A stretch of 62,052 nucleotides of DNA, filler included, from Dugesia japonica (Eukaryota), in NCBI GenBank assembly GCA_001938525.1. It is 6 parts of 6 records of this genome, joined end to end, with 100 filler letters (N's around TTAATTAATTAA, not from the genome) between each part and the next. Parts side by side here need not be neighbours in the genome. Positions count along the whole stretch, not along the records: positions 29,199 to 42,642 come from MQRL01588633.1; 5 more parts are not named here. One strand, 5' to 3'. Below are positions 20,850-59,229 of the stretch, in pieces (the first letter of the stretch is position 1; the number at the start of each line of letters is the position of its first letter). Made by a program: the position numbers and the translations under genes. The notes under the pieces are model-generated. The model worked only from the letters and a program-made list of their open reading frames with translations, searched no databases and was not told the origin of the DNA.

Positions 20850-23143
20850 TANAATCAATTTGCGAATGCAGAATTATCTCGAAATTCCAAGCGTTTTAAA
20901 TTGAAATTAAATAATATCGAATTAAATAAAGAAAACCCATGTGTATTTAATCTTTTCCAAAATTGGTATACTAACTATTCAAATATTTTCATATTACCTC
21001 CAAATATTACTAATAATCTAATCTAGCAAAATGATCCATGGCTCGTAGATAATATTTCACTTAAACATTCAAACAATATTGACTGTGTGTTGTCAGTAAT
21101 TCCCGATACTAATGCTTGGTGTTTTTAAAACTTTAAAAATCATTTTTATGTACTTGGCGATTTACCTCATGATACTCGTGGTTCAGGACTATTTAGCAAT
21201 ATCTTGATTTGCTCTTTTATTAAAAACTATGCAAGCGAACGTTCACTAATTAACATCAATCTCAAAGAAATTGGGGATATTATTAAAGAACTAGTTCCAA
21301 ATATAACGTATAGCTCTAATATCAATAGTAATAACGAACCTTCCAAGTCAAAAACCCTATTAAACTCTGAACATAAAGACAGAATTAATAATCTAATTAA
21401 TATTACTAAAAATCTTAATTCTGATGAAACANNNNNNNNNNNNNNNNNNNNNNNNNNNNNNNNNNNNNNNNTAAAAAATGCTAAACAACCGTATCTTGGT
21501 AATAAATCTTTAATTAAAACCCTTGATAAAAAGCAACTAAGAACTATATTCAACATAAATATGAAGCGTACAGTTGATTATATTCTTAATGGAAATACTA
21601 TCTGTGGCACACCGAAATATGACGACATCATTAATTATTTTACTCACCCTGATCCTACTTCAAATAATTGGGAAAATATTAGACCATTTTGTAAAACTTC
21701 GAACACTCCATTAAATCTTGAATTATTTTCTTCTGACGAAATCTTACATGAACTTAGACGTGCCACAAATACTAAACCAGGTATTGATGGTATTTATTAT
21801 AGAGATATTTCCAAATTAGATCATAAAGGTAAGCTTCTTACTCATTTGTTTAACAAAATTATCTTGACAAGTCAAATTCCATCACAGTGGAAATCGTTCA
21901 AAACTGTTCTTATCCGAAAACTTAATAAACAAGGTAATTATGATAAAATCTCATCTTGGAGATCGATTGCTTTGCTTTCTGTCATTTACAAATTATTCGC
22001 TTCAGTCTTGACACGTAGATTAACTGATTGGACAAAATATAATAATCTGCTACATATTTGTCAAAAAGGAGGTTCTTAATACAAAGGCTGCGTCAAACAC
22101 AACTCTATATTATCTTCTGCACTTGAACACTCAAGAAGTAAGACAAGTTATCCTGTAAATATTGCATGGCTAGTCATAAAAGATGCTTTTGGTAGTGTAT
22201 CACATGAATATATGTAGTTTATTCTTCCTGTTATTGGAGTGATTCATGATTTTGTTAATATTCTTAAAAACTGCTACTCCAATACAAATAGCTACTATAG
22301 TTGTGGTCCTATTCTCACAAGCAACATTACAATTAAAAAAAGTGTTAAACAAGGTTGTCCACTATCTATAATTCTCTTTTCCATTGCTATAAATCCTGTT
22401 CTTGACGCTACTAAAACATGTCAAATATCATCTTTTATGATAAATACTTCTTCTATTCAAATACTTGCGTATGCTGATGACATAGCTCTAATAGGAAAAA
22501 ATATTGATAATATTCAAAAATTAATAACTGATGCAAAAAAACTACAAAATGCAAAAAACTGGCAAATTGTGAACTGTTTGGTTGGCAAAAACTGAAAGCT
22601 TACAAGCTGATTTTCCATTCTCGTCTTACTTTTCCTTTTAGAATTCGTGAAATCAAAACGAGTGCATTACCTATTCGTTTCGGTAACAGNAAATGTAGTT
22701 ATAATTCTACTAGTAAACTTCGAATACAACTTCAAAAAATGATGAATCTACCTGATCATTCTGAAATTGCTTATTTTTACACAGCAACAGAAATGGGGGG
22801 AGCGGGGTGTATTGATTTTCTTGATGATTACCATTGTCAAAGTATTGTACAATTCGTTAGATTATTTACAACTGATTGTGACTATACTAAAACAATTAAT
22901 CTTGAGTCTCTTATAATTGCTGCTTCATCAAGATTAGGGATAAAGGTACCGACTATATATCAAAGCTTTGACTGGATTAATGGTAAAGTTAGTATCAAAA
23001 ATTGCAAAGTGACAAAAACACGGCAAATTGGTGTTCCAAAGAATTTAATAAATAAATGTTTAANAAAATGTGCAATCTCCAATATACAGAATTCTGCACG
23101 TATTTGGGAATTCCATATATCAGGAACATACCCGAATTTTTAA
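20850..23143 (+). pseudogene. Non-LTR retrotransposon RT of the R2/NeSL/Utopia (RLE) type, decayed
   Basis: PGIDGI.Y, WK...VLI.K, WRSIALL...YKLF, QKG...GC..HN, WL...DAFGSV, VKQGCPLS, AYADDIAL, Y....GGAG. Confidence 0.85.
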
Positions 23144-26880: not shown

Positions 26881-27320
26881 ATGGATGATATAATTGAACA
26901 ATGAATTTATATAAATTCGGCGTCAAAAACGAAATTAAACGTCCCGATACCTTGGAAATGCTACAGAAGTGCTATAGCAACAATNNNNNNNNAAAATCAA
27001 CAACTAATGAATGGTATGCGCGATTTTTAGATGGTTGTAAGACTGTCACAGATGATCCTAGATCTGGAAGATCATCAATCTCGAAGAACGACGAAAATAT
27101 CAAAGAAATAAAGTCATTTTTAATGGAAAATAGGAAATTGACTATCAGAGAAATTGTTGAAGATACATGAATATTATTTAGAACAGTTCAAACTATTTTG
27201 CATGAGGATTTGAAATTGAAACGAGTTGCTGCAAGGCTTGTTCCATGTGAATTAAACATTTTTCAAAAATTTAGTCGTTTTGAAATTTCAAAGGACATGC
27301 TCTGTAACGTTGATTCTGAT
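26881..27320 (+). pseudogene. mariner transposase, N-terminal HTH region
   Basis: EWYARF.DG...DDPRSGR, NRKLTIREI, ILHEDL.L..VAARLVP. Confidence 0.88.
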
Positions 27321-29098
27321 GAAATTGGTTTTGATTTATACTTTAAATTCTTAGTCATGGAAATTTTTGCTGGTTAATTTATTATAATCATGCATTTTTC
27401 GGTCTCTTTTCTTCGAAGGATATCTGTTACATTTTCTTTGAAGATTTCACCACATTCTTCCAATTCTTGGTTTCCTATTATAGTTTAATGTTATTTTGAT
27501 GCGGTTCGTTTTACTTTTTCATGTCGCTACTCAATTTTATTTCTCGTTTTCTAAAACATTCTACTTATTCCTGATAACTTTATCTGTTAGTTTAATCGAT
27601 ATCCTCGTTGTATATTTTGGTTTCATATATTTTCTTATTTTAATTAGCTAAAAAAAAAATTAAAGTCAATTTTCAAGTTAATAAATTTTGTAAATTGTTT
27701 ATAAAATTTTTATCATAAGTTATTATGTTATAATTTAGATGAAAATGATAAAANNTTCGTGCATAGAATAGATAATATTTCAATTGTTTTCGGCAAAATT
27801 GGAACTTTATTTAAAGATCAAGTTAGTTAAATTGAAAATAATACAAATATCTAATTTTTATTGATTAAAAATAAATTTACAAAGTTTTTCATATATGTAG
27901 CAAACTAGACGCTTCTGTTTTTAAAACAATCCAGTCTATTTTTTAATAGTAAAATTACTAACCTTTGAGTACTGAAACATAAAAAATAGGATCGAGGACC
28001 GGGGTGGGCTACAAAATTACCCAAGTGAAATTTTCGTATGTAAAATGAATTATTTTTATTTAATTTACTTTTATTTTGTAATTAATATAATAAATAAAAT
28101 ATTCTTATTTCACAAATTATTTCACCTTTTTTATACATAATTTTCAATGAAATATCACTAAATAATATCAATTGGAACAAGAAAAATAAATGCCTGATTT
28201 AATTATATTACTTTCAGTTTAAGTGGTAATTTGTTCATAAAACAGTATAATTATTAATTCTTTTTCCAAGTTGACTTCGAGGTTCGATTTATCATCTGGT
28301 TTAAATAGTCAATATCTTTCATATTTTCCAGTGTTTTTTTAATGTATTACATTTATTGTGATATCTTTGTGATGGTAATAAATAATATCAGCCGAATATT
28401 ATTGATATAATTAACGAATNNNNNNNNNNNNNNNNNNNNNNNNNNNNNNNNNNNNNNNNNNNNNNNNNNNNNNNNNNNNNNNNNNNNNNNNNNNNNNNNN
28501 NNNNNNNNNNNNNNNNNNNNNNNNNNNNNNNNNNNNNNNNNNNNTATCAAAATATTTTTTTTCTTTTTAGATATTTACTTTATTTTTCTAGTTCTTGATA
28601 GTATTTAGAATTCTCTTCGTCAGTAATTGACTTTTTCGGATATTAAGTCAATTCCCGTCTAAAACATAGTCAAAATTCGAAATACTATAAAGACATAAAA
28701 ATCAAAAAAAAGGAACTCTTAAATTAAAAAATTCGAGTTACTGAAAATATTGAGATTTCGAATTAGATAAGATATCTACAAAGAATGAAACAACAAAAAA
28801 TATTGTATNTACACGAACATTGTAAAATTAAATATATTAGAAACGTATTCATTATCTTTTCTTTTATTTCATTCATCCAAAATGAGCCGCATTGATCTGT
28901 AAAATAACAGAATAAACAATTTTAGTTAAAATAAAACGGTTTTCAAAGAAAAAGATAAAAAATTATTGTTCTTTTTTTCAATATTTCGACTAAGCCTTTC
29001 TCGGGAACAATAGCTCAGTAAATTGTGATTAAAACCTTTGAAATAACAAATCAAATTAAATTAATTTTATTAAATTTCAAAAAGTTAAAGAATAATGG

Positions 29099-29198
29099 NN
29101 NNNNNNNNNNNNNNNNNNNNNNNNNNNNNNNNNNNNNNNNNNTTAATTAATTAANNNNNNNNNNNNNNNNNNNNNNNNNNNNNNNNNNNNNNNNNNNN
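29099..29198. other. Artificial scaffold linker
   Basis: 44 N + TTAATTAATTAA + 44 N. Confidence 0.97.
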
Positions 29199-30173
29199 AT
29201 ATTTATCAGTAAAGGAAATAAAAGATGCCAGACCAGAGGTCGATAAACTGGATGTAAAAATAGCTACATATTCCAATAATAAAATTGATTTTATCTATCA
29301 TGAAATTCTAAGACAAGTAGATAGAATATATCAAGAAAGAATGATGAAAAATTGCAAAATTAAGCGGGAGTTGTTAAGAGCAAAAATGGCAATGGTAGTC
29401 ACAAATCCGGATTTAGTAGCTCCACTTTTGTTCGAAGAAAGAGGAACATTTGGAAGAATAGTGGGAGAAACTTTAGTGAGTTTTAAATGTAAACCAGTAG
29501 CTGTTACNNNNNNNNNNNNNNNNNNNNNNNNNNNNNNNNNNNNNNNNNNNNNNNNNNNNNNNNNNNNNNNNNNNNNNNNNNNNNNNAGAATTTTAACAGA
29601 TAAACATTATCAACCAAAAGTAATTGAAAAATGTAGTAATATCCTTGATCCTATGTACAAGCTAAATTAGGAAGTATGGATAACAGTGTCAGACAGGAAG
29701 ACAGCACCAACCCCACTAATGATGGAAATGATAGAGGTCGGTAGAACAACAGAATTGGAAAGGATAGATAATATGGCATTTATACAATTAATGATATTGA
29801 GAAGGATCGGAAACATGTTTTTCCAATACAAAGAGAGAAAATAATATCAATTATGGTCGATAAAGTAGCAAGAGGAAGTAATGGAGACGACGTAAATTTT
29901 GAATCATTATTACATGCAGATCATTTTAAAAGGGCAATGCGCAATTTCGTAGATAGATTTTTGGGGGGAATGCAATGGTTTGGTAATATATTCTCATGTA
30001 TTTTGTTCGGGTGGTATGTCTTGACATTTTTAAAATTAGCAGGTCATCAAATACTTTCTCTGAGACAACTACATGCAGTTTTCGGTTACATATGGAAATT
30101 GGGAGCATGTTTCTGCCCATTTATTGCAAAACACATGATTGTGCAAAATCACAGTGAAAAAATAAAGAATTAA
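29199..30173 (+). pseudogene. Class III-type (chuvirus G / gB-like) envelope glycoprotein, C-terminal half
   Basis: NNKIDFIY...RIY....NC..KR.L....P......G......GE.L....C.PV.V...RIL......C....P.Y....W pattern followed by a TM (FGNIFSCILFGWYVLTFL). Confidence 0.75.
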
Positions 30174-30203
30174 GAAAAGCATCGAGGCGTATATACAATA
30201 AAT

Positions 30204-33200
30204 ATGGAGGATGAGCAAAAGTTAAAAAAATTAACTAATGATAAATCATCAGAGACAGAATATAAACTATTTAAACAAGAAAATATTGTATTAGAACAAA
30301 TAAAGATAGATGATTTAACACAATATAAATATCAAAAGAATTACTCAATGTCAGTCATAGATTCAGATAATAATATACACACAACCGATATTATAATAAA
30401 TGGAATTAGTATACCTTCGTTAATAGATACAGGAACAGTATACTCCATAATAAAGGAATCGTGGTTAAATAAAGCACAAAGACAAAAAATAAAAAATTAT
30501 AAACCAGAAGGTATAAAATCATTCACGGGGCATATAATAAAAACAAAAGGCATAATTGAATGTACTGTCTTAATTGAACAAGAAATTGTGACCCATCCAT
30601 TTAGAGTGATGGAAAATGGAACACAGAATTGTATTTTAGGTATGGACTTTCTGGCAAGATTAAAATGGTACGTCATTGATTTGCAAGATAGCACACTGAA
30701 AATGGTGACACCAATACCAGTGCAAGGGGAAAGTAATGTGATATGTGCAGCAGAGTTGATAACAGTAGAACGTTGTAGTGAATGTATAATGCCCATAAAT
30801 ACAGAAATACAAAATAACAAGTCATAAATTTTTTTACCAAATCAGAAATTGATAGAAAAACATAATTTATCAATACTGTCTGGATGTGTAAAGCCAAGAA
30901 AAGGAATAATACCGATGAGAATAGCGAATTACAATAATTACGATGTGACAATTCAAAAAAACACAAAGTTAGGGAAGTTATTTAAAAATGGGAAAAAATA
31001 TGAAATATATGAAATTGTAATTGAAGAACAACAGAAGAGAGTGAACTTACAAGGGCAGAGTAAAAAATCAGTAAAAGAAGAGTGTAATGAATTTCTCGAA
31101 TTTATAATGGAAAAACAAGAGAAAATGAATAAAACAAGTAATAAAGAATTAATAAAACAAAAACAAACAAAATATTATGAGAAAGCAAAAATAACAAATA
31201 AAGATCTCACAATAAATCAGCGACAACAACTACAGAAACTATTGGACAAATATGAAGATGCATTCGCTAAACATGAGTTTGATATGGGAGGAACAAACAT
31301 TATAAAACATATAATCGATACAGGTAATGCAAGACCAATAAAACAGCGACCATATGTAGCACCATATGCGTTAAGACCAGAAATCAAAAGACAAGTTGCG
31401 GAACAAAAAGCGAATGGAATCATACGAGATAGTTTCTCTCAATGGGCATCGCCAATAGTACCAGTTAAAAAGAAAGACGGAGAAATTAGAATGTGCATTG
31501 ATTATAGAAAACTTAATGAAGTCACAAAAAAAGATACACACCCCTTTCCAAAGATACACGAGCAATTCAATAAATTAATGAATGCAAAATACTTTGCAAG
31601 TTTGGATACTAACAAAGGATACAATGTAATCCCAGTACAAGAAGAAGATCGAGAGAAAACAGCATTTTGTACTGATGATGGATTATAGGAATTTGTCAGA
31701 TTACCGTTTGGGTTATGTAACGCACCAGCTACATTTCAAAGGTTAATGAACACAGTGTTAACAGGTGTCGAACATGTAGTAGTGTATATGGATGATATTC
31801 TCATAGCATCGGAAACATTTGAACAACATTTGATTAACATAGAAAATGTATTGTCAAGAATTAGAAAAGCGAATATTAAGTTAAAACCCACAAAATGGAA
31901 GTGGGCAGAGGAAAGTGTGTGACTTCACTAGTCACAAGATTTTCCAGTGCCAAAGAGTGTACAACAATTACAAGGATTTAATGGACTAGTGGGATATTAT
32001 CGTAGATTCATACAAGATTTTGCAAAGATATCAGCACCATTGGTAGAGCTAACCAAAGGCATGAAAACGAAAGGTGAAAGTAAAAGTGTAATGATTGAGG
32101 AAGAATTAGATGAAAAATCAAAGAAGCCTCAGAAAAAATGGGGCCCAAAACAACAAGAGGCTTTCGAGACATTAAAACTACGATTGCTAACATCTCCAAT
32201 ATTAAAATATCCTGATTTCACAAAACAATTCATTGTGATGACGATAGCAAGTGGGTATGCTATGGGAGCAATGCTCGGTCAAGAAGAGGAGAAAAATAAA
32301 GATTATGTAATTGCATATGCTAGCAGAATGTTGAAAGGAGCAGAGACAAGGTATTCAACAATCGAAAAAGAATGTTTAGCCATCATATTTGCGTTAAAAC
32401 AATTTAGACCGTTTATATATGGAACAGAAATAATCATCCGAACAGATCATAAACCTTTAGAGGGTCTATGAAAGAATAAAGATGCACCCAGTAGAATACT
32501 GAAGTGGGCAATGAAAATTCAAGATATGAGCATACGTATTATATATAAGCCAGGTAGAGCAAACAAAAACGCCGATGCATTATCAAGAATCCCAGAAGTG
32601 AATATAGTGGAAATGATGTCAATTGTGATGACAGGAACCAACCCAAAAACGTTCTTAGAGGAACAAAAAAAATATAAACAAATACAAGGGATTAAAAAAA
32701 TGATGCTTCAAGAAAAGAATACTAAATATAATATGTATAAGAATTTACTTATGTACAATAATTTAGGGGAAAATCTGATGGTTATACCAGACTCTCTAAA
32801 ACAATTATTATTGTTACAATATCATGATGGAGCACTCGGAGGACACCTATCTAGCAAAAAAACCACGTCAAAGTTGCTACAAAAATATTATTGGGATAAT
32901 ATTAAAGAGGATGTAAAGAAATGGTGTCAAGCATGTAGTACCTGTGCCACAAGAAAGAATACAGGAACAAAAACCAAAGTTCCTCTACAACCAATGCCAA
33001 TACCCAGTTCACCAATGGAAACATGCGCAATGGATTTTTTGTGCAAATTACCAACGACTATAAAAGGCAATAAACATATATTAGTATTTATTCACTATTT
33101 CACAAAGTGGGCAGATGCATTTCCTACAAAAGATGAAACAGCAGATACAGTAGCAAAGTTATTAGTTGAAAAAATAATATACAAATATGGAGCGCCAAGA

Positions 33201-33890
33201 AAGTTACTATCCGATAGGGGAAAGAGTTTCCTCAATGAAGTCATACAAAGAGTGACAAATATGTTTGATATTAAAAAAATAAATACGACGGCATATCACC
33301 CATAAACTGATGGGTTAGTTGAAATATTCAACAGTACACTATGTAATAGATTGGCAGTTTTCGTAAATAAACATCAAAATGATTGGGATTTGTTTATTAA
33401 GCCAACACTATTTATACATAATACAACTGAAAACGAGGCCACGGGATATTCACCATTTTATCTTATGTATCTCAGACAAAATCATATGCCAATAGATATA
33501 ACATTTNNNNNNNNNNNNNNNNNNNNNNNNNNNNNNNNNNNNNNNNNNNNNNNNNNNNNNNNNNNNNNNNNNNNNNNNNNNNNNNNNNNNNNNNNNNNNN
33601 NNNNNNNNNNNNNNNNNNNNNNNNNNNNNNNGATTATTATTAAAAGATCATAATTTTAAAGTAGGAGATAAGGTGAGGATAAAAACACCAATCACACAGA
33701 AAGGATTAACCAATAAATTAGCAAGACCTTATAAGGTCCATATGAAGTAGTAAAAACAACTCCTACAAATTTACACATAATAAAGAACAAAAGGGACGAT
33801 CCCATGATTGTGGCAGTTAACCGATGCAAAATAGCAGAAGCAGAAATTGAACCTAAAAAACAACACAAATATAACCTTCGATCAGGATCA
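30204..33890 (+). pseudogene. Gypsy pol: aspartic protease, dUTPase-fold-like spacer, RT, RNase H, integrase with GPY/F domain
   Basis: LIDTG, ILGMDFL, WASP, RMCIDYRKLN, YMDD (31785), YASR, TDHKPL, N..ADALSR, H..GH...C..C, SDRG, TTAYHP.TDGLVE, GPYEV; all ORF pieces share one frame. Confidence 0.97.
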
Positions 33891-34745
33891 CAAAGTGCAT
33901 TACCACTCTTTACACTAACTCTGTTGACATTATTAACAGTGGGAGCAGCTCAACTTGAAAAGGAAGAGAGTTTTGGCTATATAAAAGAGATAATCTATTC
34001 AGATAGAATCATACTCAGGGCACCTGACAACATAGCGATCGTTGCAGTGATAAAAGATAAACCAGTCACATATGATATATCAAGCAAATACATCAAGAGA
34101 AAAGAACGTATTCTTCTACCATGGAAAGTGTATAAAGGGATATGCCAGATAGAGATAGAAGGATTAGAGGCCAATAAAAAATATAGAATTTGGATAAGTT
34201 ATCAGATAAAAGGAATCAAATCAGTAAAACAATATGTAGTCACTACGTTACAAGAATAACGAATTATATCACAAAAATAGTTATTGAATATTACCGCAAT
34301 ATTACAAAGAAAGTTGAGTACAACCAGACCACCAAAGAAGACGGAATTTATAACTAGCCCTACGAGACAAAAGAAGTTAGGTACAATAAAACAAAACATA
34401 GAAACAATTAATCATTACAATACACTAATATATCATAATGTTGCAGTGAAAACGAACAAAAATCCTAAGAGAAACAGACAGACTTGGATTAATAGCATAA
34501 GTCCAGATCATCAACAATTGCGACATAAAATTCTACAAATGTGGATTACAACCACAAGAAAACCATTTGACATGAAAATATTATATCACCCTTTTTCAAT
34601 ATTGGGAACAATNGCATTACTCTTCCTCCTCGCTTTCATAATTACATTAATCCAAATACATAAGCGATATAGGTGGAAGAGGCAGCGTTATCGGCGTCGT
34701 AATGCCCCACAAATTCCAAATTATGTCCAATGGACATTGGTCTGA
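33891..34745 (+). pseudogene. Type I membrane protein fused in frame after integrase (signal peptide, FN3-like domain, Thr-rich stalk, TM, basic tail)
   Basis: ALPLFTLTLLTLLTVGAA; IEGLEANKKYRIWI; STTRPP...TSPT; ILGT.ALLFLLAFIITLIQI; KRYRWKR...WTLV; two internal stops. Confidence 0.65.
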
Positions 34746-35191
34746 ACACCCTACACAAAATATGTTAAAATTCTATATCATTATTTATATATATTTTTAT
34801 TTATATTATAAGCTACTAACACATGTGGCAGTATGTNNNNNNNNNNNNNNNNNNNNNNNNNNNNNNNNNNNNNNNNNNNNNNNNNNGCGTTATCGGCGTC
34901 GTAATGCCCCACAAATTCCAAATTATGTCCAATGGACATTGGTCTGAACACCCTACACAATATATGTTAAAATTCTATATCATTATTTATATATATTTTT
35001 ATTTATATTATAAGCTACTAACACATGTGGCAGTGTGTAGGACTAGCCAGTCCTTAAAATAAAAAGTTAATCATTACATCGTTTTAGAAACAACAACTCA
35101 AACAAAGATATCAGAAACAAGCCAGATCAATCAATACATTATAGTATATAACAGACAAATCACGAAATACCATTCATTTACATACTACATA

Positions 35192-37258
35192 ATGCAGTCA
35201 AAGCAGCACGCTACACACAATCAACAGTCGAACAATAATGTACAGAGAACACAACAATATGAACAAGCAAGTCATAGCATAAAAAGCAAAGAGAACAGGA
35301 GTAACGAATTAATACAGTCAATGCACAATAAATCTACACACCCGGCAAACATCCCTTCATCTTCATCCTTAATCACAAAAGGTGTCGCGCATTTTTATAA
35401 TCATATACCAAGTTTTGTGTTCAAAGATAAAGATAGTGAACCTAGAATAGAAGTATTTAACGGTGTAAATACAATCCCGAATGTCTTAAAAAACAACAAT
35501 TTTGATAAAGATATCATTATGATACGATTTCAAAAGGCTCAGAGAAACTCAATACAACAATTGATAGGATAAATAGAAATAGAGAAAGATCCACAAGAAG
35601 CACTGTTAAATGGCAAACGAATACTTAAAGAAATTAGATTACATGTTACAAAGACTCCTATTATATTCTCGTACAGAAAAAGAGATATCCATATCTTGGC
35701 AAACAAAACACTGATATTAGACGGAAAAAAGATCCAGGAGTGAACAACATAAAAATTGCGATACAGGACATTCCAGCCGTTCTTTGTGTAGAATTAATTT
35801 ATCATGAACGCATTCCTGTACCTTTTCCTACATATACTGCTATAAAAGGACATTGCCCAGTGGACTATATAGACCTAATTAACCATACATCGTCCTTAAA
35901 ATATGCAATTTTAACAGAACCTGATATTGAACAATTAATAGTATATGTAGATATGATAACAGTCAAAGATTCATATTTCAATTTGCAAGTGGTAGAATTA
36001 ACTATATTAAATAATAAAGGAGAAATTATATTGGATGAAACCCTATGTCCACGAGAAAGGATAATACATTTTGGCACGCCAAGTACAGGGTATACCCATG
36101 AAAAGATAAAGAAATATAAAGATGCATACCCTACAATTTTGAAGGCACGACAGCTGCTGTATGGAAAAATACTTGTCGGCTTTGAATTAGGAAATAAATT
36201 AACGAGTTTACATATTGACCACAGACATGTTATTGGTATCAAGGATCTTACGGAAGACAGATGGCGTAGGATGTATACTCCAAATATCAAAAAGTTAAAA
36301 TTGATCAACCTTATGGAGGTAGTATTCAAATCCATGAAGCAGGATAGAGTAATCGAGGATATGTTAGAAACAGCGAGAGAAAAAGCACAAGAATCGACAG
36401 CCAAACGGATAACATTTATAAAGATTACATATAAACAGTTAATTACTCAGCAACCGTGGAAAGATTCTATATACCCTGGTAGTAATCCGGGTATGAAAGG
36501 TATTGAAAATAATGAGCCAAAATTGCCAGAAGTCATGATAAGAGAAAAGGAGAAACCAGATAGTGTGGTATGGATATTGGACTCTGAACAAGATTCGGAT
36601 ATAAAAGATAATGAAGAAGAGACAGATGGAAGTACAGATAGTAGATACGATGAGAATAATGGCATAGATACAGAGTGGGACGAGGAAGACTTACCAGAAG
36701 AACTCAGACCGCATAACGACACTGGGGAACAGCGGAGACTGATAGAGGATATAATACGACGAAATCCTAGGATGGTACAGACAGATATGGACGCATCTGA
36801 AGGTGATGATGTTCCAGAACGGGCAATGTCACAAAAAGAACAAAGGGAGGCTGAAAGTGAAACTGAATACTGGTCAGGTGAAGAGGTAGAAGATCTTAGT
36901 TTAGATCAAGTACGATGAGATTGTGAAGGAATACCGCATCATATGGATAGCGACAGTGATGACCTCGGTCCTGAGCCACAAATTGATATATATGACCCTA
37001 GTACGGACACATTCAATTTGAATAAAGCCCTCAAAATAGATAAGTGGGATGGAAATATTAGCAGTGCAAAAAATAACTTTGAAAAGGATATCGGGTAAAG
37101 ATATGCAACTACAATTTGGAAAGAAACGCATTAGATTGACAACCATTAAAGAAGGCAGTAAGAAGACATAAACGTTTGTCGTTGAAAATGTTTTGCTAAA
37201 CACCATTGCGGTAACAGAAAAGGGTGCCACACTTACACTATCCATTAACAATGATTAA
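35192..37258 (+). pseudogene. Accessory ORF with a REX4/ISG20-like DEDDh exonuclease fold (catalytic residues altered) and an acidic region
   Basis: LTILNNKGEIILD...P...I..F.T..TG, LLYGKILVG..L.N.L..L, IKDLT; continuity across stops and shifts from 35192 is inferred. Confidence 0.75.
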
Positions 37259-37334
37259 AATATATATTATCTGTATTTAGTATTGCTATTATAGTTTTCT
37301 CTTTATACTTATTATTGACATTATATATTTTAGA

Positions 37335-38597
37335 ATAAATTGCAATTTTCAATCCCAAAAACTATTTTTATTAAACAAAGCACACATACCACTATATGAA
37401 AAACACAGAAATCTCACAAACCCTTACAACTACTGCTGGCAAGATATTGCATTAATTACCTTGTTCACCGAAGAAAATCCCGTATGTCCCCTATGTTATG
37501 ATCAACCTGTGGTACCCCGAATAGCACCTTGTGGACACTTCTTTTGCTTCGCTTGCATAAACCAGTATTTTCATGTTACCAACTCTGATAACGTACCTTG
37601 TCCTTCTTGTAGGACACAGAAAATATATGACACTAAACTCAAACGCGCCAGTTTTTGTTACATTAATAAGCCTCGTGTCGAACAGTTTATTTCATTTACT
37701 CTCCTGATTAAAATGCCTGATAATAATAGCACACGCTTTGCTCATCTTACTCCTGTAATTCAGCAGATAGATGTCCCTAGTTGTTGCAACCCCATTAGCA
37801 AGTTCCAAGAAATCTGCATCCAATCCGATTCTTTATCAATAAAACAGATTAACAATGATATTAGAACAATTAGTTATGGCCAGTTAGCTGCAGCGCAAAA
37901 AAAGAAATTGATAAAAATACTTAAAACAGAAAGAACACATTTCACATTTAATATTAAAATTCTTGATAAGTTGGAACACGAAAAGTCGTTTACGGATAGA
38001 ACCCGGAATACAGACAAGTTTAATCTTCTCGTCCATCACCCTACATTATCGAACGTAAGATTATTTTATCAAACAGCTATCTATTCACGAACTTTTCTCA
38101 ATAGTGTGCAGACGAAACGACTTTTGAAAAATCAATCGGAAGATATTCCTTTTCGCATGGGTGGTTTCATCACGGTCATAGAAGTAGCTATTGATCACCA
38201 TTTAGATATAGATAAAATATATCATTTCCTGCCTAATCAAACGAAAATAAGACTCGTGACGATCCGAATGGACACTTCCTCCACATCAAGACATTTTGGT
38301 CCTTTGAGTTATCTATACATTCATGCTAATATAACAAGGCTAGCTATGAAGAGGCGTAATAAAGAATTGCAAGACATCGCAAACGAGAGTAAAGCTAGGA
38401 AGGGTCGACCAGCCCGGATACTCACCCATCGTGCCAATACAAACAAAATAGATATTTTTTCTAGAAGTCCTTCTGTTTCCCCATCCTTCATAAATCTAGA
38501 AGATAATTTCCCAGCGTGTATTTTTAATGAACCTTGTTCCGATAACACCATTTCATCATTCCAAGATATTGCCTGTCCTTATTTCGCGTTTACCTAA
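37335..38597 (+). CDS. RNF10/Mag2-like C3HC4 RING E3 ligase
   Basis: NCNF...P....W.DI......CPLC...P..PRIAPCGH.FCFACI.QY......CP.C; the frame is open back to a TTTTAG acceptor at 37333. Confidence 0.75.
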   Translation: MNCNFQSQKLFLLNKAHIPLYEKHRNLTNPYNYCWQDIALITLFTEENPVCPLCYDQPVVPRIAPCGHFFCFACINQYFHVTNSDNVPCPSCRTQKIYDTKLKRASFCYINKPRVEQFISFTLLIKMPDNNSTRFAHLTPVIQQIDVPSCCNPISKFQEICIQSDSLSIKQINNDIRTISYGQLAAAQKKKLIKILKTERTHFTFNIKILDKLEHEKSFTDRTRNTDKFNLLVHHPTLSNVRLFYQTAIYSRTFLNSVQTKRLLKNQSEDIPFRMGGFITVIEVAIDHHLDIDKIYHFLPNQTKIRLVTIRMDTSSTSRHFGPLSYLYIHANITRLAMKRRNKELQDIANESKARKGRPARILTHRANTNKIDIFSRSPSVSPSFINLEDNFPACIFNEPCSDNTISSFQDIACPYFAFT

Positions 38598-38618: not shown

Positions 38619-39496
38619 GGAGAAGGAACGTTTGTTGAGGTTTGAATAGTTTAAACAGACAAGCAACACACAATAAACATAGCAGAGCAAAATTTATACA
38701 ACACACAATAAACATAGCAGAGCAAATTTCCTAAATCAATTAGTTAACTCAAGTCCTCAAATCAATATCAATCCCTGAAAAATCAATCCAACTCAAATGT
38801 GTTGACATTATATTTGAAAAAATGTGCTGACATTATATTTTATTGTGACATCATATTTTATTTGGAATTTCAATTTTATTGTGACATTATATTGTATTGT
38901 GACATTATATTTTATTTGGAATTTCATGAAAATTTGGATTATTCGAAAATATATTGATTTTATTGTATAAACAATTTAGACTATTAGTTAATGTTAAGAA
39001 TTTTATTGTATAAACAATTATGGCATATAATTTATTTTACGACGAATTAATAATCATGGAAATTTTTTATGAAAAATTTTATTGGATATAATTTATTTTA
39101 TGTAAACTAATAATCATGTAAGTAATTTATATGGAAAATTTTATGTAAACACTAGGTCAATGCATGAAGGCCTAGTGTGAATTTTACCATAAATACTGAC
39201 GTATGTCAGTTTATTGTTCAGAAAAAATTTAATTTAGAGAACCTATCTCTTTCTCTACTTTAAAATTAAACTGAGCGATATAAGTGTAATTATCCTAATC
39301 AAAATGTCAATTATAGAAGTATGAGTTGTGTTTTTATTTTAAATGTGGAAATTTACATAAATCAGTTATTTATATTTTTGCTTAAACTATATTCTTATAT
39401 AATAGTTGTATTTACACACACACAAAGGAAAATTTTGAGTCTCCCAAAAAAATTCATTATTGAACATTATACCTTATTGTTTTTAAATTCTTACCA
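38619..39496 (+). repeat. Polypurine tract and putative 3' LTR
   Basis: GGAGAAGGAA then TGTTGAG at 38633; internal direct repeats; CATAAATA plus TCAGT initiator-like site near 39190; right end uncertain. Confidence 0.6.
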
Positions 39497-39506
39497 TAAA
39501 ATCTTT

Positions 39507-39997
39507 TGTTGAGTTAGATACCCAACAGTATTAATGCTGTTATCGTTTATAGTGCATTCTTATCTTAAACGCTCGGTGGCTCCGACCAAAAAGGTGCGGG
39601 AATCTAGCGAAGATCTCGAAATGAAATGGAATCTGTAAAAGCTGGCCAAACGCCGTTGGGAAACCGACACTTTTACGGCAGAAAGCAAAGTTAAACGTTA
39701 CAAGTCGAAACGTATAGCCTTTAGGAAGGAAAGAATGTGTAAAACACAAATAGAATCGTTCACGGAAATCATCTGGTCCCTCTATGACCGTGAGAATAAA
39801 CTTGTGCATGACATTCTTGAATTAAGGAGAATACCGCTTGAGCCACTTATGATAGATAAGGGTACTCAAACCTCGAGCCACTGAGCTCTACCTCTGTTGT
39901 TCATTTGTAAATAAAATACTCCTTGAATTTGTACTAATTTATTTTGTCTTGACTTGATGGCTTTATTGGCATAATTGAAATTATGATATATTCAATA
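39507..39997 (+). repeat. Possible second (solo) LTR, or the distal part of the same LTR
   Basis: TGTTGA...TCAATA ends; AATAAA near 39910; no clear TSD. Confidence 0.4.
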
Positions 39998-40594: not shown

Positions 40595-40706
40595 TAATAT
40601 TATTGCTATTATAATCCAAATTATTGCGAGAATAATTGTTGGACTTAAAAATTGATCGCATTTGAGATTTCATCAAAATAAAGAAAAAGCTTCGATCAAA
40701 ATAAAA
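40595..40706 (-). repeat. Hairpin-repeat family copy
   Basis: Reverse complement of 9863-9959. Confidence 0.8.
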
Positions 40707-40749
40707 TGTATTTTTATGGGAATTTTCGACTGTTGTCTTCTTCGGGTAT

Positions 40750-40935
40750 ATGATCAGCCCAGACTTAGCTCCATCAGATAATCACTTATTTCGGTCAATG
40801 AGTCATTTTCTGATTGGCAAGAAATTTAATTCAGTAACACATATCAAAAGTGGAGTCATTGAGTTTTTGCAGTCCAAGCCACCAGAATGGTATCAGAAAG
40901 GAATCCAAAATTTAGCTGATAGATGGTTAAATACC
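40750..40935 (+). pseudogene. mariner transposase C-terminus
   Basis: SPDLAPSD.HLFRSM...Y..GI..L..RW. Confidence 0.9.
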
Positions 40936-52014: not shown

Positions 52015-52754
52015 TTTCAACAAATCAAAATCATTCATGATGAAATGGATCATCTCAGTAGATACATCCGTGCGCACAAAACCACCTCCCCCCGCTGGAA
52101 AAGTGCTATGATTTTTTGGTTTGATTTTTTGTATAATTTGTTGGTTTAAAATTTTTGAATATTGATTGGTCAAAAAGTTGTATTGAAAATATTTTCTTTT
52201 TGGAAATTTTATTTGTCGAAATTTTGGTCAGAAAAGTGGAATTTTGAATTTTTGGTTTTTAATTTTTTTTCAGTCAATTTTTATTGTATAGTTTCAAATT
52301 TAGTATCGCCAGTTAAGACATACGATTGTTCCATAATATATATCTATAAAATTGAATTTTGAAATTTTTGCATCCATGTGGCGAATTTTTCAAATTTTAT
52401 CAAGCAAATTGAATAAATCTGAAGTAATGTTATTCACATATCCTTGAAAATACAAATTTCTAAGCCCTAGTTTCACTAGTTTTCCTACCACGAACACATT
52501 TGCACATAAAGGGTCATATTTTACAAGTATTAGAGTAGGAAATAACTCTGGTTCGAACCAACAGTTGACTATTCTTGCTAATTTATACAAATTTATTAAA
52601 ACTCCCATATTTACGACAATTGTTAGTAACTGTAATTGTAAATTTTTTATAAAATAGGGGTTCACATTATGCGGTTCTAATGGTTTCTTACATCCCATTA
52701 TTCTTGATTTTATTGACCTAGAGTAAATAATTGAATATTTATCCCTTTTGACTT

Positions 52755-52945
52755 TGTTAGGTAAATCTTCAATTGTTAATTCATTTTGCAAATCAGAATT
52801 CATATTGTTAGACATTTTTTATTTTACTACTACAAACTATATTTCATAAGATAAATAATTATGAAATACAAGTATTTAAATATTAATATTTAGATGTCTC
52901 AATTCCTAATGGGTGAGATTATTAATTAATAATTATTTTCTCATA
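52755..52945 (-). repeat. 3' LTR
   Basis: Near-identical to 56024-56214; preceded by AAAAAAGGGGA on the minus strand. Confidence 0.93.
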
Positions 52946-52995
52946 TCCCCTTTTTTAAGAAACTTCCTAAGTTTTTCCCCATTTCTTTCTAAACG

Positions 52996-54820
52996 CTAGC
53001 CATTGTCTCCTTGTATTGCACACCACCTTTCGTGAATTTTTTCAATTATTCGATAAGGTCCTTCAAATCTGCCTTGACTTTTATTTCTTGTTTCTACATT
53101 GATGAGTACAAAATTGCCCACTTTAAATTCTCTTTTAGTAATCACGTCTGAAATGGTTTTTTTAGTTTTATCTGACACGTCTGACTTGTATAAGTTTATT
53201 TGGTAATTTTCCTTCTAAAAAACGAAGTAAATCTTCTTCCGTACAAGTAATGTTTGAAATGCAGACAGAAATAATAAACAGCCAATAAATCCTTTCGTGT
53301 AATGTAGTATCCTTTTTCATGACTCGTTATTGAGTGTGATCCATAGGCAACAAATCTTTCTCTTCCTTCTTTATCTCTCTGTGACAATACTGCTCAATTG
53401 TATCGAAACTTGCATCTGTATCTAATATAAATTCTTTGTTTATGTCCGGACAACACAATATTGGTACAGTCCTTAGAGTTGTTTTCAGTCCATTCTAATT
53501 TCTTGTTGCTTGGTCCGCTACACAATTGCTCTAATATCTTTAACTTTCTTGCGTAGTTTTCTATAACCTTATTGTAATAATTACAAATTCCCAAGAAACC
53601 TCGTAACTTCTTCACACAGTTAGATTTGCCAAATGTTCTTATTGCTTCTATTTCATACACCATCCTGGTAATTATGTGTCCAAGAAACTTGATTTCGTTT
53701 TGAAGAAACTCACACTTCTCTGGATTTAATCTTAGACCAGCCTACATTATTTCCATCAATACTTTAACAATGACTTCATAGTGTTGATCTTTATTGTTCG
53801 TAAATATCAGAATGTCATCAAGATAAACTATGGCTCCACTGATTCCGCCAACCACTTTTGTCATCATCTCCTGAAATGTCCCTGGTGCCGCTGCGATGCT
53901 AAATGGTATTCTATTAAAACAATATTGTCCGTATTTCGTTGAAAACGCTGTTTTTTCTTGAGATTCTTCTTTGAGGTATACCTGATAGTATGTATTTCTT
54001 AAATCTATTGAACTGAAATATTTGGAGACATCTTACTTTTGCAGCATTTCATCGACATTAGGCATCGGAAAGGCTTGTCCTTTTGTTACTGCATTCAACT
54101 GTCTGAAATCCAAACATATTCTTATGTCCTTCTTTTTTTCCAAACACAGATCAATGGAATATTCCATGGATAGTTGCATTTTCGGATAATATTATTCTCA
54201 AAAAGGTTTTGGATAGCTTTTTCAATTTTAGATTCTAAGTTCATTGATTGTCTGTACGGTTTTACATTGATTGGTTCAACACTTGTGATTATTTTGTGTC
54301 TTTTCACATTTGTACGTTTTACATCCAATTTAACTGCTATAGAAACATATTTTTTACTTTCAATTATTTTCAATAACTGTTGGTCCTCTGTAATCTACAA
54401 ACTATTTAAACCTCTTGTCAATCGCTCTCCATTTTTAATTTTTCTTCCGAATTTCGCTTCAATATTACAAATTTTCGACTTTTTCATCCGTTTTGCTATC
54501 GATCTTTCGTATAAGCTGATATCTAAAAATCTTCTGCATATCTATTCCTCCTATCTGATCTGGTGTCACTCTTTTAGGAACTAAAAAAGTAATCTCTTAG
54601 CAGGCTTCATCAATTATCACTCCAGTTCTAACTTTCCCAACAATTTCAAGTGTTCTAATGTTTCCACAACGCAATCTTTCATGACTCATTTCTAAATTTA
54701 CTTCTCGTAATTTAATAAAACAAATCAAACTCATCACGTTAATTTGAGCCCCTGTAGCTAATAGACATTCGACTTTATCTCCTTGAATTGAGACTGTAAC
54801 ACTAGGTTTGCCTTGCAATT
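52996..54820 (-). pseudogene. Gypsy pol remnant
   Basis: CLLATGAQ (catalytic D lost), PWN.P...V.K, CLDFRQLN, KTAFST, YLDD, LRGFLG..NYY, HF.HYLYG, FEGPY. Confidence 0.9.
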
Positions 54821-55179
54821 TATGGTACGAAATATTTATTTTCTTTTTTGCTTCAACTGTTTCAATCCATTCAACTTTTCTACCATCTGTAAAATTTCAC
54901 CTCTTTAAGAAACTGTATGCTTTTTCTGTAACTTTTCCTATATCATCCCACTTTTCGACCCCTTAAGGATATTTACTCACTTCATTTAACAATGGATGGC
55001 TCCAACCAACTCCTCTACTGGTGGAGTCTGCCTTTTGGGTACTGCCTTTTGGAATCACTTTCATATACTTTCTCATATTCATCGTCTGTACTGACATCTT
55101 CATCTTTAATCGCATGTATTCGGTTATATCGGTTTCTTGATCTTTCTGCATTCATAAATTTATCATTGGTTCTTTTCCT

Positions 55180-56084
55180 TTTAAAATTTGTGTAGCACTA
55201 TTCTGCTCTATTTCCACTATTACAACATCGTTTACACCTCACGTCTTGACATAACCGTCTTATTTGGGCAACGTTTCCACTACCAAAACATTTTGTTGGT
55301 TTTTTATTTTGACAATCTCGACTTATATGTCCTGTTTTATGACAACTCCAGCACTCTACCACTTTTTTTTCGGACAACTTGCTTTAGTATGACCGATCTT
55401 ATGATATGACCAACATTCGATATTTTGTTTTTCCTTTCTTTGCTCCACATGTCTATTCAGTGTACGATTTACAGGTTTCTGATAATTTCGGTTTGTAACT
55501 CTCGCGTAACTTCTAACTTCATCAACTCGATCTCTGTTTTTCTCTACTCGATCTACTAACGTCATTGTTTCTTCAATTTCTTCTATATNNNNNNNNNNNN
55601 NNNNNNNNNNNNNNNNNNNNNNNNNNNNNNNNNNNNNNTTATCTGAACAATATACTAGCATCTTTGTAACCATTTTTTCTTCAGTAAAATCTTTATTTGT
55701 AAATAATCTTTCCACTAAATATTTTACATTTCTAAAATGAAATTAAATCTTTTCATTTCCACGCCTGTAGTTAACCAAATTTTGAAAATCTTTCTCTTTC
55801 TCAAATGCCATACGCAAACGAGCCTGAAAATCTTCAACTTTTTTCAACTTCATTGCATATTCTTCCAACAAATCGTCATCTAGCAAACAAGAGACTAATC
55901 TCTCCTATTTCATGTTTCATCTGAAATATGTTTTTAACTTCAAAATACAATTCACACCTTTTGATAAATTTCTAAATATCATCTCCTCTGCAGTAATAGA
56001 ATCGGTATTTACCGCTCCCACAATGTTAGGTAAATCTTCAATTGTTAATTCATTTTGCAAATCAGAATTCATATTGTTGGAAAT
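55180..56084 (-). pseudogene. Gypsy gag with multiple CCHC knuckles, frame starting inside the 5' LTR
   Basis: ECW..HK.GH....C, ECW.CHK.GH....C and C..CG...H....C knuckles. Confidence 0.8.
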
Positions 56085-56214
56085 TTTTTATTTTAATACT
56101 ACAAACTATATTTCATAAGATAAATAATTATGAAATACAAGTATTTAAATATTAATATTTAGATTTGTCAATTCCTAATGGGTGAGATTATTAATTAATA
56201 ATTATTTCCTCAAA
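56024..56214 (-). repeat. 5' LTR
   Basis: Near-identical to 52755-52945; followed on + by TSD GACTT. Confidence 0.93.
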
Positions 56215-56413: not shown

Positions 56414-57031
56414 ATGGAGAAATTAAGAAATGATGCAGTCTATCACATTGTTGGACCCAGTGGTAGTGGTAAAATTTTGTTTATATGTCAATTATTGAAA
56501 TCAAAGTTATTCAAGTCAAAATTTTAAAACATATACTGACATAGGGGTGCAGATGAGGAACATGGACTGACTAGAATTTTGTAATATTAAAATGAAAATT
56601 TTAAATGGTTTTGATTCTAATTGGAGCAAAAGATTAAGACCAGTTGATGTTATTGTTATTGATGATCTGTATCAGGAGGCAAATAAAGAAAAGGATTTCA
56701 ATAATTTATTCACAAAAATATCGAGACATTGTAATGTGACTGTTATATTTATTACTCAAAATCTATTTCATCAAGGAGGTAGTCATAGAACCCGAAATTT
56801 AAACGTACATAATTTGGTTCTATTCAAAAATCTTAGAGTTAAAACTGTTGTTGATTTTCTAGCAAGATAAGCATATCCAAATAACAGAAAATTGTTTATT
56901 GAATCATTTCAAGATGCACAAAAAAACCACATGGATTTCTTGACTTTACACAACAATGTCCAGATGATTATAGAGTGAGAACAGATTTATTCAACCTTAA
57001 TGGTATCGCAGTATATATACAAAACAGGTAA
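56414..57031 (+). pseudogene. Polinton packaging ATPase
   Basis: IVGPSGSGK, VIVIDDL, FTK.SRH.NVTVIFITQNLF, RT..LN....VLFKN.R. Confidence 0.92.
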
Positions 57032-57302
57032 CCTTTCATAATATAACAAAATGACAAAATTATAGAAATGTGTAGTTGATCAAGTAACTGATGGTCTTAT
57101 TAAACATTGAAAAACATCTGTTGAGAAGAAAAAGTAAAAAAAAGAAACATCACATAAATAAGAAGCAAACAAGAAAAAAAAGGAAACAAATGATTATGTT
57201 TAAAAAACCTGCAAAATGGAATGGAAAGAAGCTGAAAATGATGATTAGAAAATAGATTTATTATAAACAAAGTTATAGTATGTATTAGTTTAATAAATAA
57301 AG

Positions 57303-57625
57303 ATGAAATTGCAAGTAATCATACTGTTTTTTACAGCTTTAATTAAATCATCAAAACATTTAAGAATGAAAATTTTGCAATCATTCCCACGATATGTTAT
57401 AGATGATTTACTTGAAATTATTATAAATATTGTTCATTGCAATGTAGATTTGAGTGCAGCCAAAAAGAAGACATTGAGAAAACATATAATTGCTTTATTA
57501 ACGCTTGTAAACACAGAAAATAGAAAATCAATGAGACACGTAATGAACAATGAAGGTGGTGGCTTTATAGCAACATGCTACCCATTGCAATGGCTGCATT
57601 AGGGTTAACTCATTTCAAATAAACA
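57303..57625 (+). pseudogene. Polinton core/PW-like protein with a GG|F cleavage site
   Basis: L.EII.NI..C.V.L...K..L.KH...L; GGGFIA followed by a frameshifted hydrophobic tail. Confidence 0.7.
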
Positions 57626-57769
57626 ATGGTTGACTTTATAACAGTAATATTAATAATTAGCTCAAATGAACAATGAGTGGATTGCAATAATTACCTAACG
57701 TTGACTTAAACTTTGCATCTGATTGTTTTGGTGGAGCAAATAATGAAGATAATATGAATGGATCCAAAA

Positions 57770-58075
57770 AACCCAACAGGTTTTTGAGGCGTAAAAAATT
57801 GATGAAAGCAGCTCAAAACACGCAAAGAAAGACAAAAAAGTGGTTATCTGTACAAGGTTGAAAGGATTTCCAACAAGAGCATATAAAGCATATGGTATTC
57901 ATGATTAATTGTAAAATGTATCTAATGGGAATGATTATTCAAAGACTAATAAATTTTAAAAGTATATTTCTGTTATTTATCGTTGTATTCAATAGATTTG
58001 CAAGAGCTGTTCTATTTTAATCCAAGAAAACTAAAGAATAAACAATACTTTGTAAAATGATATTAATACGAAAAC
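57770..58075 (+). pseudogene. Highly decayed Polinton integrase remnant
   Basis: FPTR.Y...GI.D, then V...RFA.AV...SK. Confidence 0.5.
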
Positions 58076-58137
58076 TGATTTTAGTATTAACAACACAAAT
58101 AGACAAACAAGACGCAAATTATAATTAAATCTAATAA

Positions 58138-59229
58138 TTTCTATACACTTTTACCTAGTAATAGTAGTCCACTAGTTCGTCCAAATTATATTGCTAGTAA
58201 TTACATTGTTGAGCTTCAAAATCCAATTTATATGGGTGGTAGATAGGAAGTTGTCATGATGGATTTTACCTTTGTATATTCAGTCATGCCGATTTATAGT
58301 CAATCTAAGTTTGAATATGAATTACTTAAAGTAATTGAAAAGGAACTAATAATTGATGTTAACAATAAAGAAACAAAAGTTCTTTTAACTGTTAATTCTC
58401 AAGAAAATTATAAAAATAGCAAGAAAATAGTTATGCGATTATCAAAAGAAAACGTGTTATTATTCATTACTAGTGATATTACATTTTACAGTTTATTCTT
58501 TAATAGTCGGAAAACTTTAAAGAGATTTTCACATTTTAGCGGTGATATTGAAAGTATGGATATTAAATTAACTTTTGATACTACTAAGAATTTTGGAGAT
58601 AAAACATTTGCTCTTGGCTTTTGCAACTTTAAAAACGATGAGTACTTTCAAAATATTAGAAATAAATATTATTATTATCCGATTGTAACTAAACATTCTT
58701 TTCAATTTAAATCTGAATTTTATATAAAGGATTTAAATCAAATAAATGAATATTGTAAAAAACACCTTTCACAGTTATTTAACACGTTTAAATTAAATAA
58801 AGATGAACTATTTGAATTTATATTGGCAAACAGAACTAAAGTGATAAATTTGATAAAATCTTAACAAAATTATTAGGACTAATAGAAGCGCAATATACTC
58901 GATTACAAATTAATGATAAAAAACTACTATATAAAAGTAATAAGAAACCTAAAATATTAAAGTGTTATAATGAAATGTTCATCTATTGTAGTATTGTTGA
59001 ACCTGTAATTGTTGGTGATGTTAATGTTCCTTTATTGAAAGCAGTATGGATAAAAGAACATGAAAATGATGAAGTAGTTCAAATAATTGTTGATCATCAA
59101 ATGCATTTATCTATTTTTCATCATTTATAAACAATATAAAAATCAATATACGCCATAATAGTGGAAAACTAGTCAATTTTGCTGAAGATTCAAAAACCCA
59201 TTTAACTTTACATTTTAGAAAAATTAATA
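58138..59229 (+). pseudogene. Polinton minor capsid (penton/PZ)
   Basis: FY..LPSNSS...P......Y.V.L.NPI...G.(W)EV; MFIYC.IVEP..VGD...PLL; LTLHFR. Confidence 0.88.

Follow-up and report, generated by a model that had tools for sequence, protein, structure and literature searches.

Several mobile elements are known in which an envelope gene precedes pol. In the planarian element Burro, env lies in frame between gag and pol, an arrangement described as the first such case (Arkhipova & Yushenova 2019, PMC6431247), and its first open reading frame (ORF1) is given there as one chain of 4,873 aa running from Gag to the integrase; BURRO1 has been reported to be expressed after loss of PIWI-interacting RNAs (PMC8532177). 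GAG-ENV-POL "ancient errantiviruses" with an ENV of the HSV/gB kind (HSV, herpes simplex virus) have been described from Nematoda, Bryozoa and Platyhelminthes (Chary & Hayashi, PMC13524379), including six elements of Schmidtea mediterranea with 45, 215, 3, 8, 1 and 1 intact copies, and the same paper cites Sacco et al. 2022 for a flipped ENV-POL order in a nematode metavirus. In Atlas virus, Gag, Pol and an Env of class II follow one another in one polyprotein (bioRxiv 10.64898/2026.03.22.711591). Here, an Env-Pol element is analysed in a 62,052-nt stretch of the planarian Dugesia japonica (assembly GCA_001938525.1; the whole stretch is referred to as the window). The element, located downstream of position 29,198, is most probably a decayed member of a high-copy Ty3/gypsy family, with an Env of the gB/chuvirus type in frame before protease (PR), reverse transcriptase (RT), RNase H (RH) and integrase (IN). 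The stop codon that parts Env from Pol at position 30171 is absent from other copies, and the intact form was likely a single Gag-Env-Pol polyprotein threaded through the membrane of the endoplasmic reticulum (ER).

The window copy resembles the errantiviruses in its Ty3/gypsy Pol, its gB-type Env and the position of env before pol. With Burro and GYPSM1 it shares an Env similar to mononegavirus fusion glycoproteins, placed in frame before PR and followed by RT-RH-IN, as well as a very high copy number, accessory ORFs and tandem repeats. Burro and GYPSM1 are characterised by an ORF1 of about 4,900-5,100 aa with Gag, CCHC knuckles and MATH, Ubl, BCL2, BIR and ankyrin modules; Gag, the MATH/Ubl/BCL2/BIR modules, the length of >30 kb and the long terminal repeats (LTRs) are out of view in the window copy, which also lacks the Env domain I-II region given in the supplement of PMC13524379. 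The window copy is classed as a gypsy element of the GAG-ENV-POL type and is probably Burro-like. A continuous gag-env-pro-pol ORF is reportedly present, at low copy number, in non-canonical nematode endogenous retroviruses, which differ in their hosts and in copy number from the very high-copy planarian family. The env-before-pol order is not new (PMC6431247, PMC13524379), and since this order is already in print and the copy is dead, the locus itself is ordinary.

Domains of the window were assigned by Pfam profile matches, and the copy was aligned with intact relatives by tblastn. PF24664 (Monjiviricetes_fusion) was matched twice above the Pfam cut-off, at 29200-29508 (profile positions 300-388 of 653, E 5.3e-14) and at 29772-30170 (profile positions 477-608 of 653, E 2.1e-14), and the Env of the window amounts to about the C-terminal half only. 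Because a scaffold spacer lies directly 5' of env, gag, the N-terminal half of Env and the 5' LTR are out of view. An earlier note on this DNA had proposed a chuvirus/gB-like Env with a C-terminal transmembrane segment, and both are borne out (Table 1). It had further placed the whole of 29199-30827 in one frame with the protease, which holds for the Env tail only: the span is interrupted by a gap of 79 N (29508-29586) and by a stop codon at 29668, and its frame shifts near 29770-29820. On either side of the Env anchor stands a 7-residue motif of similar sequence, which is not regarded as a duplication, as only 26 of 50 bases are alike.

Downstream of the TAA at 30171-30173, whose flanks are as quoted in the earlier note, the same frame runs on into an aspartic protease (PF13975), and no N run, LTR, gag or frame change is present at the Env-PR junction. 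The domains that follow are of the gypsy type and stand in the order PR-RT-RH-IN, as in Ty3/gypsy elements (Metaviridae); a search with the Pol part of the window alone likewise returned Ty3/gypsy-type Pol proteins. The identity of Env and of Pol and their relative order, as well as the stops, are direct observations on this copy. The TAA had been regarded as a single separator of two reading frames; it is, however, one of 7 stops in the 1,245 codons of frame 29772-33506 (30171, 30825, 31686, 31920, 31929, 32469 and 33303), and the other six all fall within Pol, namely in the PR-RT linker, RT, RNase H and integrase, including its core. The integrase region carries, besides the stop at 33303, an N gap (33507-33631) and a frame change near 33732. 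No LTR pair for the element was found among the repeats of the window, one purine run resembling a polypurine tract was seen at 39723, and no tRNA genes were found in the window. A 152-nt direct repeat of 99% identity flanks a 50-N gap at 34685-35038 and is likely an unmerged assembly overlap and not an LTR.

The state of the junction in other copies was read from contigs of four public DNA runs (X1, X3, X4 and X9, from three studies) placed on the window copy at a likeness of at least 80%. Depth differing from the window at codon 30171-30173 came to 7992.9 of 7992.9 in X1, 7622.4 of 7622.4 in X3, 7321.8 of 7348.8 in X4 and 187.3 of 191.3 in X9, bearing in mind that contig depth is no copy number and that contigs drop rare variants. 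The contigs with a difference (37, 36, 43 and 13, respectively) carry a codon that is not a stop, and in the four runs the best contig bridging the codon reaches 43, 53, 43 and 28 letters beyond it on the shorter side. The suggestion that the stop might be conserved in other copies is thus contradicted by direct observation in nearly all of the depth. The stop at 30825, inside Pol, is likewise not common to other copies (1717 of 1771.9 depth differs in X1). The TAA at 30171 is most likely a sign of decay of the window copy, that is, a private nonsense change or an assembly error.

A HMMER query consisting of the Env tail and PR, with X at the stop, found 94 proteins among representatives. In the top matches (P0004, P0005, P0007, P0010, P0011 and P0014) a single HMMER stretch covers the Env tail through to PR, and Env is followed by a protease in one chain in 11 of 15 relatives scanned. 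Seven proteins (P0005, P0014, P0099, P0102, P0104, P0105 and P0106) are full-length single ORFs of 2,627-4,844 aa in which the passage from Env through integrase can be read directly. P0153, retrieved by the Pol-only search, is an eighth protein with Env before Pol, ahead of PR. Residues 867-2072 of P0014 align with 29775-33506 as one tblastn high-scoring segment pair, and the cluster of P0105 has 20 members, 15 of which, as listed, span 4,026-4,029 aa. When 105 proteins matching over a long part of RT-IN were ranked, 7 of the 8 best had Env in the same chain, at 43-47% identity. The claims that env stands upstream of pol in one element, and that Pol is joined to the cytosolic tail of Env, are therefore in agreement with the domain order, the bridging contigs lacking the stop and the proteins that span the junction. 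A word-based search with the Env tail gave no related protein among 95 candidates, and scans for related loci gave none among 89 stretches in metagenomes and 21 in prokaryote genomes. Further likenesses to Burro are a weak Bcl-2-like region directly before Env in P0030 (Pfam E 9.6e-4) and ankyrin repeats in P0102, while the Env domain I-II rows of the S. mediterranea errantiviruses, as far as they are given in PMC13524379, resemble P0005 and P0014 by eye only.

Two side observations concern these proteins. Between 3 and 7 aspartic-protease-like motifs per chain occur in P0004, P0008, P0102, P0104 and P0105, some of them after the integrase, the window copy having one. P0014 (HBK71150.1), an intact Gag-Env-Pol polyprotein of 2,627 aa, has been assigned in the database to a metagenome-assembled genome of Flavobacteriaceae and is likely a eukaryotic contig wrongly binned.

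The fold of Env was modelled on the relative P0030, which is 39-40% identical to the Env tail of the window, from a 17-row alignment (predicted local distance difference test, pLDDT, 69; predicted template modelling score, pTM, 0.46). Compared with PDB, the model matched herpesvirus gB (best E 3.2e-14, TM-score about 0.3), and in BFVD chuvirus-type glycoproteins, with E 2e-42 for the glycoprotein of Tacheng Tick Virus 4. Sequence searches against PDB gave no fusogen match. Since the model matches both gB and chuvirus glycoproteins, Env is assigned to class III at the level of the family, and the comparison with HSV gB and chuvirus G called for earlier came out in favour of this class.

In all seven full-length relatives the hydrophobic segments are laid out alike: one stands immediately ahead of Env, another at the C-terminus of Env, and two or more follow the integrase; the last three segments are retained in the window copy. 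The Env ectodomain measures 543-557 aa and has 14 Cys in each of the seven. The predicted post-integrase ectodomain varies from 120 to 381 aa. In the window, the post-integrase module consists of a signal-like hydrophobic segment (33894-33959), a predicted beta-rich ectodomain, a second hydrophobic segment (34578-34670) and a short tail, with stops at 34257 and 34278. The post-integrase ectodomains of the window and the relatives gave no alignment beyond the integrase tail, and a single-sequence structure model of the region is of low confidence (pLDDT 43); by impression, a fold of the fibronectin type III kind might be present.

Judging from the hydrophobic segments of the relatives, the intact polyprotein may be threaded through the ER membrane. 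Gag would be made first, in the cytosol, after which an internal signal sequence would send the Env ectodomain of about 550 aa and 14 Cys into the ER lumen, where signal peptidase could free its N-terminus. The Env anchor would act as a stop-transfer segment and bring the chain back to the cytosol, so that Pol would begin tethered to the Env tail and be released by the protease of the element itself. A second signal after the integrase would then export a further type I membrane protein with ectodomain, anchor and tail. A single reading frame would yield Env and Pol in a 1:1 ratio, and readthrough would play no part. In flavivirus and hepacivirus polyproteins, capsid, internal signal, luminal envelope protein, stop-transfer anchor and cytosolic enzymes follow one another in one chain; the Env-Pol chain has the same predicted order of segments. 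This is an analogy with no claim of homology, and the element differs from those viruses in that it is a reverse-transcribing LTR element and its fusogen is of class III. The main text of PMC13524379 makes no mention of a polyprotein, readthrough, frameshift, fibronectin or Burro.

Several observations weigh against the reading of the element as one ER-threaded Gag-Env-Pol polyprotein. Gag is not visible in the window copy, the spacer lying directly upstream of env, and the topology is deduced from hydropathy only. The fold comes from the relative P0030 and not from the window fragment, and the pTM and the TM-scores to gB are low, as given above. The RT-IN ranking is partly biased, as its seven Env-bearing rows were first found by Env searches, and an RT-IN tree of 14 rows (without P0074 and P0088, whose matches were short or absent) put the window copy on a long branch and did not resolve its position. 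In 16 of 34 Env-tail relatives no protease motif follows the tail: 4 of these chains end before the stop position, 8 end 15-50 residues after it, 2 have longer tails, and the remaining 2, P0006 (whose Env, at 44% identity, is the closest) and P0022, run only 2 residues past the site of the window stop. The contigs of the latter two are short (1,680 and 1,806 nt), and they may be broken copies. Finally, of the 7 full-length relatives only 3 (P0105, P0106 and P0014) have a CCHC knuckle ahead of Env, and a Retrotrans_gag match ahead of Env in P0012 lies below the Pfam cut-off (22.2 vs 24.1 bits).

The last two points are of consequence for an alternative in which Env and Pol form one ORF and Gag is translated separately, from its own ORF or by frameshift, the polyprotein starting at or shortly before the Env signal. 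Such an arrangement would be in line with the called proteins of P0005, P0099, P0102 and P0104, which have no knuckle before Env, and with the missing 5' end in the window. However, in the other three full-length relatives one chain contains the knuckle, Env and integrase together, zf-CCHC in P0004 and the weak match in P0012 likewise stand ahead of Env, and the short N-termini of some relatives may stem from damaged copies. Placement of Gag first, ahead of Env, as seen in the relatives, is also consistent with the unbroken Gag-to-integrase chain given for Burro ORF1 (PMC6431247). A separately translated Gag consequently seems rather unlikely.

Far less probable still is the proposal of the earlier note that the TAA is a programmed readthrough site setting the Env:Pol ratio. 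Its position, after the Env anchor and before PR, would be a sensible place for such a switch, and the ends of P0006 and P0022 fall close to it. Nevertheless, the stop is not conserved across the copies sampled in the four runs, intact relatives run through the junction as one ORF, and six further stops interrupt the same frame inside Pol. Nor is there a stem-loop downstream: in a fold without pseudoknots, the RNA 3' of the TAA reached -9.4 kcal/mol (z -0.61), and 56 of 200 shuffles were equally stable. The base directly after the TAA is G, and G in this position favours termination. With an open frame at the junction across the family, a readthrough switch is not supported. The idea that Env and Pol are two elements brought side by side by nesting or mis-assembly, which the crowding of the window with element fragments and assembly gaps might invite, is already refuted by the many contigs of other copies bridging the junction and by the single proteins aligning across it (HMMER, tblastn), all the more so as no N, LTR or frame change marks the junction and the closest Pol relatives carry Env.

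Table 1. Features of the Env-Pol element and its surroundings, in window positions
Feature	Position	Strand	Basis or remark
Scaffold spacer, N44 + fixed 12-mer + N44	29099..29198	.	occurs 5 times in window
C-terminal half of gB/chuvirus-type (class III) Env, broken	29199..30170	+	PF24664; collinear tblastn with intact relatives
Predicted Env transmembrane anchor	29982..30047	+	Kyte-Doolittle scan, peak 1.84; counterpart in 7/7 full-length relatives
TAA stop	30171..30173	+	most likely nonsense change private to window copy, or assembly error
Env tail/linker (83 aa from stop to catalytic motif) and aspartic protease	30174..30827	+	PF13975 E 2.4e-9
PR-RT linker and reverse transcriptase; stops 31686, 31920, 31929	30828..31931	+	PF00078 E 3.2e-10, 6.7e-17
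RT connection and RNase H; stop 32469	31932..32471	+	PF17919 E 1.5e-35, PF17917 E 4.7e-31
Integrase: zinc-binding domain, core, C-terminal part	32472..33893	+	PF17921 E 4.8e-20, PF00665 E 7.3e-11; tblastn
Post-integrase module	33894..34745	+	hydrophobicity scan; layout common to 7/7 full-length relatives
Probable accessory ORF, weakly DEDDh-exonuclease-like (SDN1, ISG20)	35638..36918	+	PDB phmmer E 2.9e-4 and 0.012
Probable accessory ORF, C3HC4 RING finger	37281..38597	+	PF00097 E 1.7e-7
Short tandem repeats, 18-nt and 61-nt units, 3' end of GC-richer stretch	38828..39145	.	

The Env-Pol family is very abundant, as are Burro and GYPSM1: between 11,318 and 14,037 contigs, which are not a copy count, were placed on 5.9 kb in each of three DNA runs, mostly 90-99% alike. 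From three raw RNA runs, 209, 18 and 25 reads were placed, none of them at least 99% alike to the window copy. Of the two downstream ORFs listed in Table 1, the DEDDh-like one has no Pfam match at E 0.1. Both have a raised GC content like the rest of the element, to which we infer that they belong. Both recur in the genome, though at much lower depth than pol (depth bins 168-2,311 vs 4,646-33,548), and for this reason a subfamily probably carries them as cargo. Rotifer LTR elements are known to have DEDDy exonuclease ORFs (PMC5408684). The account of Burro in section 7 of PMC6431247 contains neither a DEDDh-like ORF nor a post-integrase membrane module.

The window as a whole is AT-rich (GC 13-36%) and repeat-dense, which is in keeping with a planarian host but no proof of one, and scans of it found no clear host gene. 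Decayed Polinton/Maverick-like fragments occupy 117-2210, 4604-9668, 13288-17326 and 56571-59130; they include an integrase with a phospholipase-A2-like domain (PF00665, PF08398), a DNA polymerase B (PF03175, 14189-14812, minus strand) and, by eye, ATPase- and protease-like ORFs, with two diverged copies about 7.8 kb apart. A second, unrelated gag-pol gypsy element is located at 52755-56212 on the minus strand (RT PF00078; about 31-35% identity to the Env-Pol relatives), and the 189-nt direct repeat flanking it (52755-52943 and 56024-56212, 97% identity) probably represents its LTRs. Adjoining it is a TBP-like ORF (PF00352, E 2e-5; 52390-52818, minus strand), which could be cargo of a Polinton or a remnant of the host. 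RT fragments of a non-LTR retrotransposon were noticed by eye at 21129-23143, with no Pfam match at E 0.001 for 21129-22076, and the stretches at 26900-27330 and 40705-40935, picked out by eye from their motifs, are presumably mariner-like transposase remnants, the latter having no Pfam match. A coding-like tandem repeat of 27 nt spans 3868-4263 inside an ORF at 3837-4487 on the minus strand.

To what is in print, the present analysis adds a direct check of the Env-Pol junction, at which the family simply has an open frame and thus no switch for readthrough, and a membrane layout of four segments, conserved among the relatives, from which the processing of the chain can be predicted. No description of the post-integrase membrane module was found in the literature, although Sacco 2022 and Grohme 2018, which were not covered, may already detail the single ORF and accessory ORFs. 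It may tentatively be proposed that, in this clade, gag-env-pol gypsy elements undergo processing at the ER in the manner of flavivirus polyproteins and that, beyond the integrase, they end in a second membrane protein of type I. The four-segment layout makes two matters testable, namely assembly at the ER with an apparent 1:1 ratio of Env to Pol and the role of the post-integrase module. If the proposal is true, the post-integrase protein could serve as another envelope protein or as a mimic of a host receptor, and these retrovirus-like elements would carry two surface proteins within one chain.

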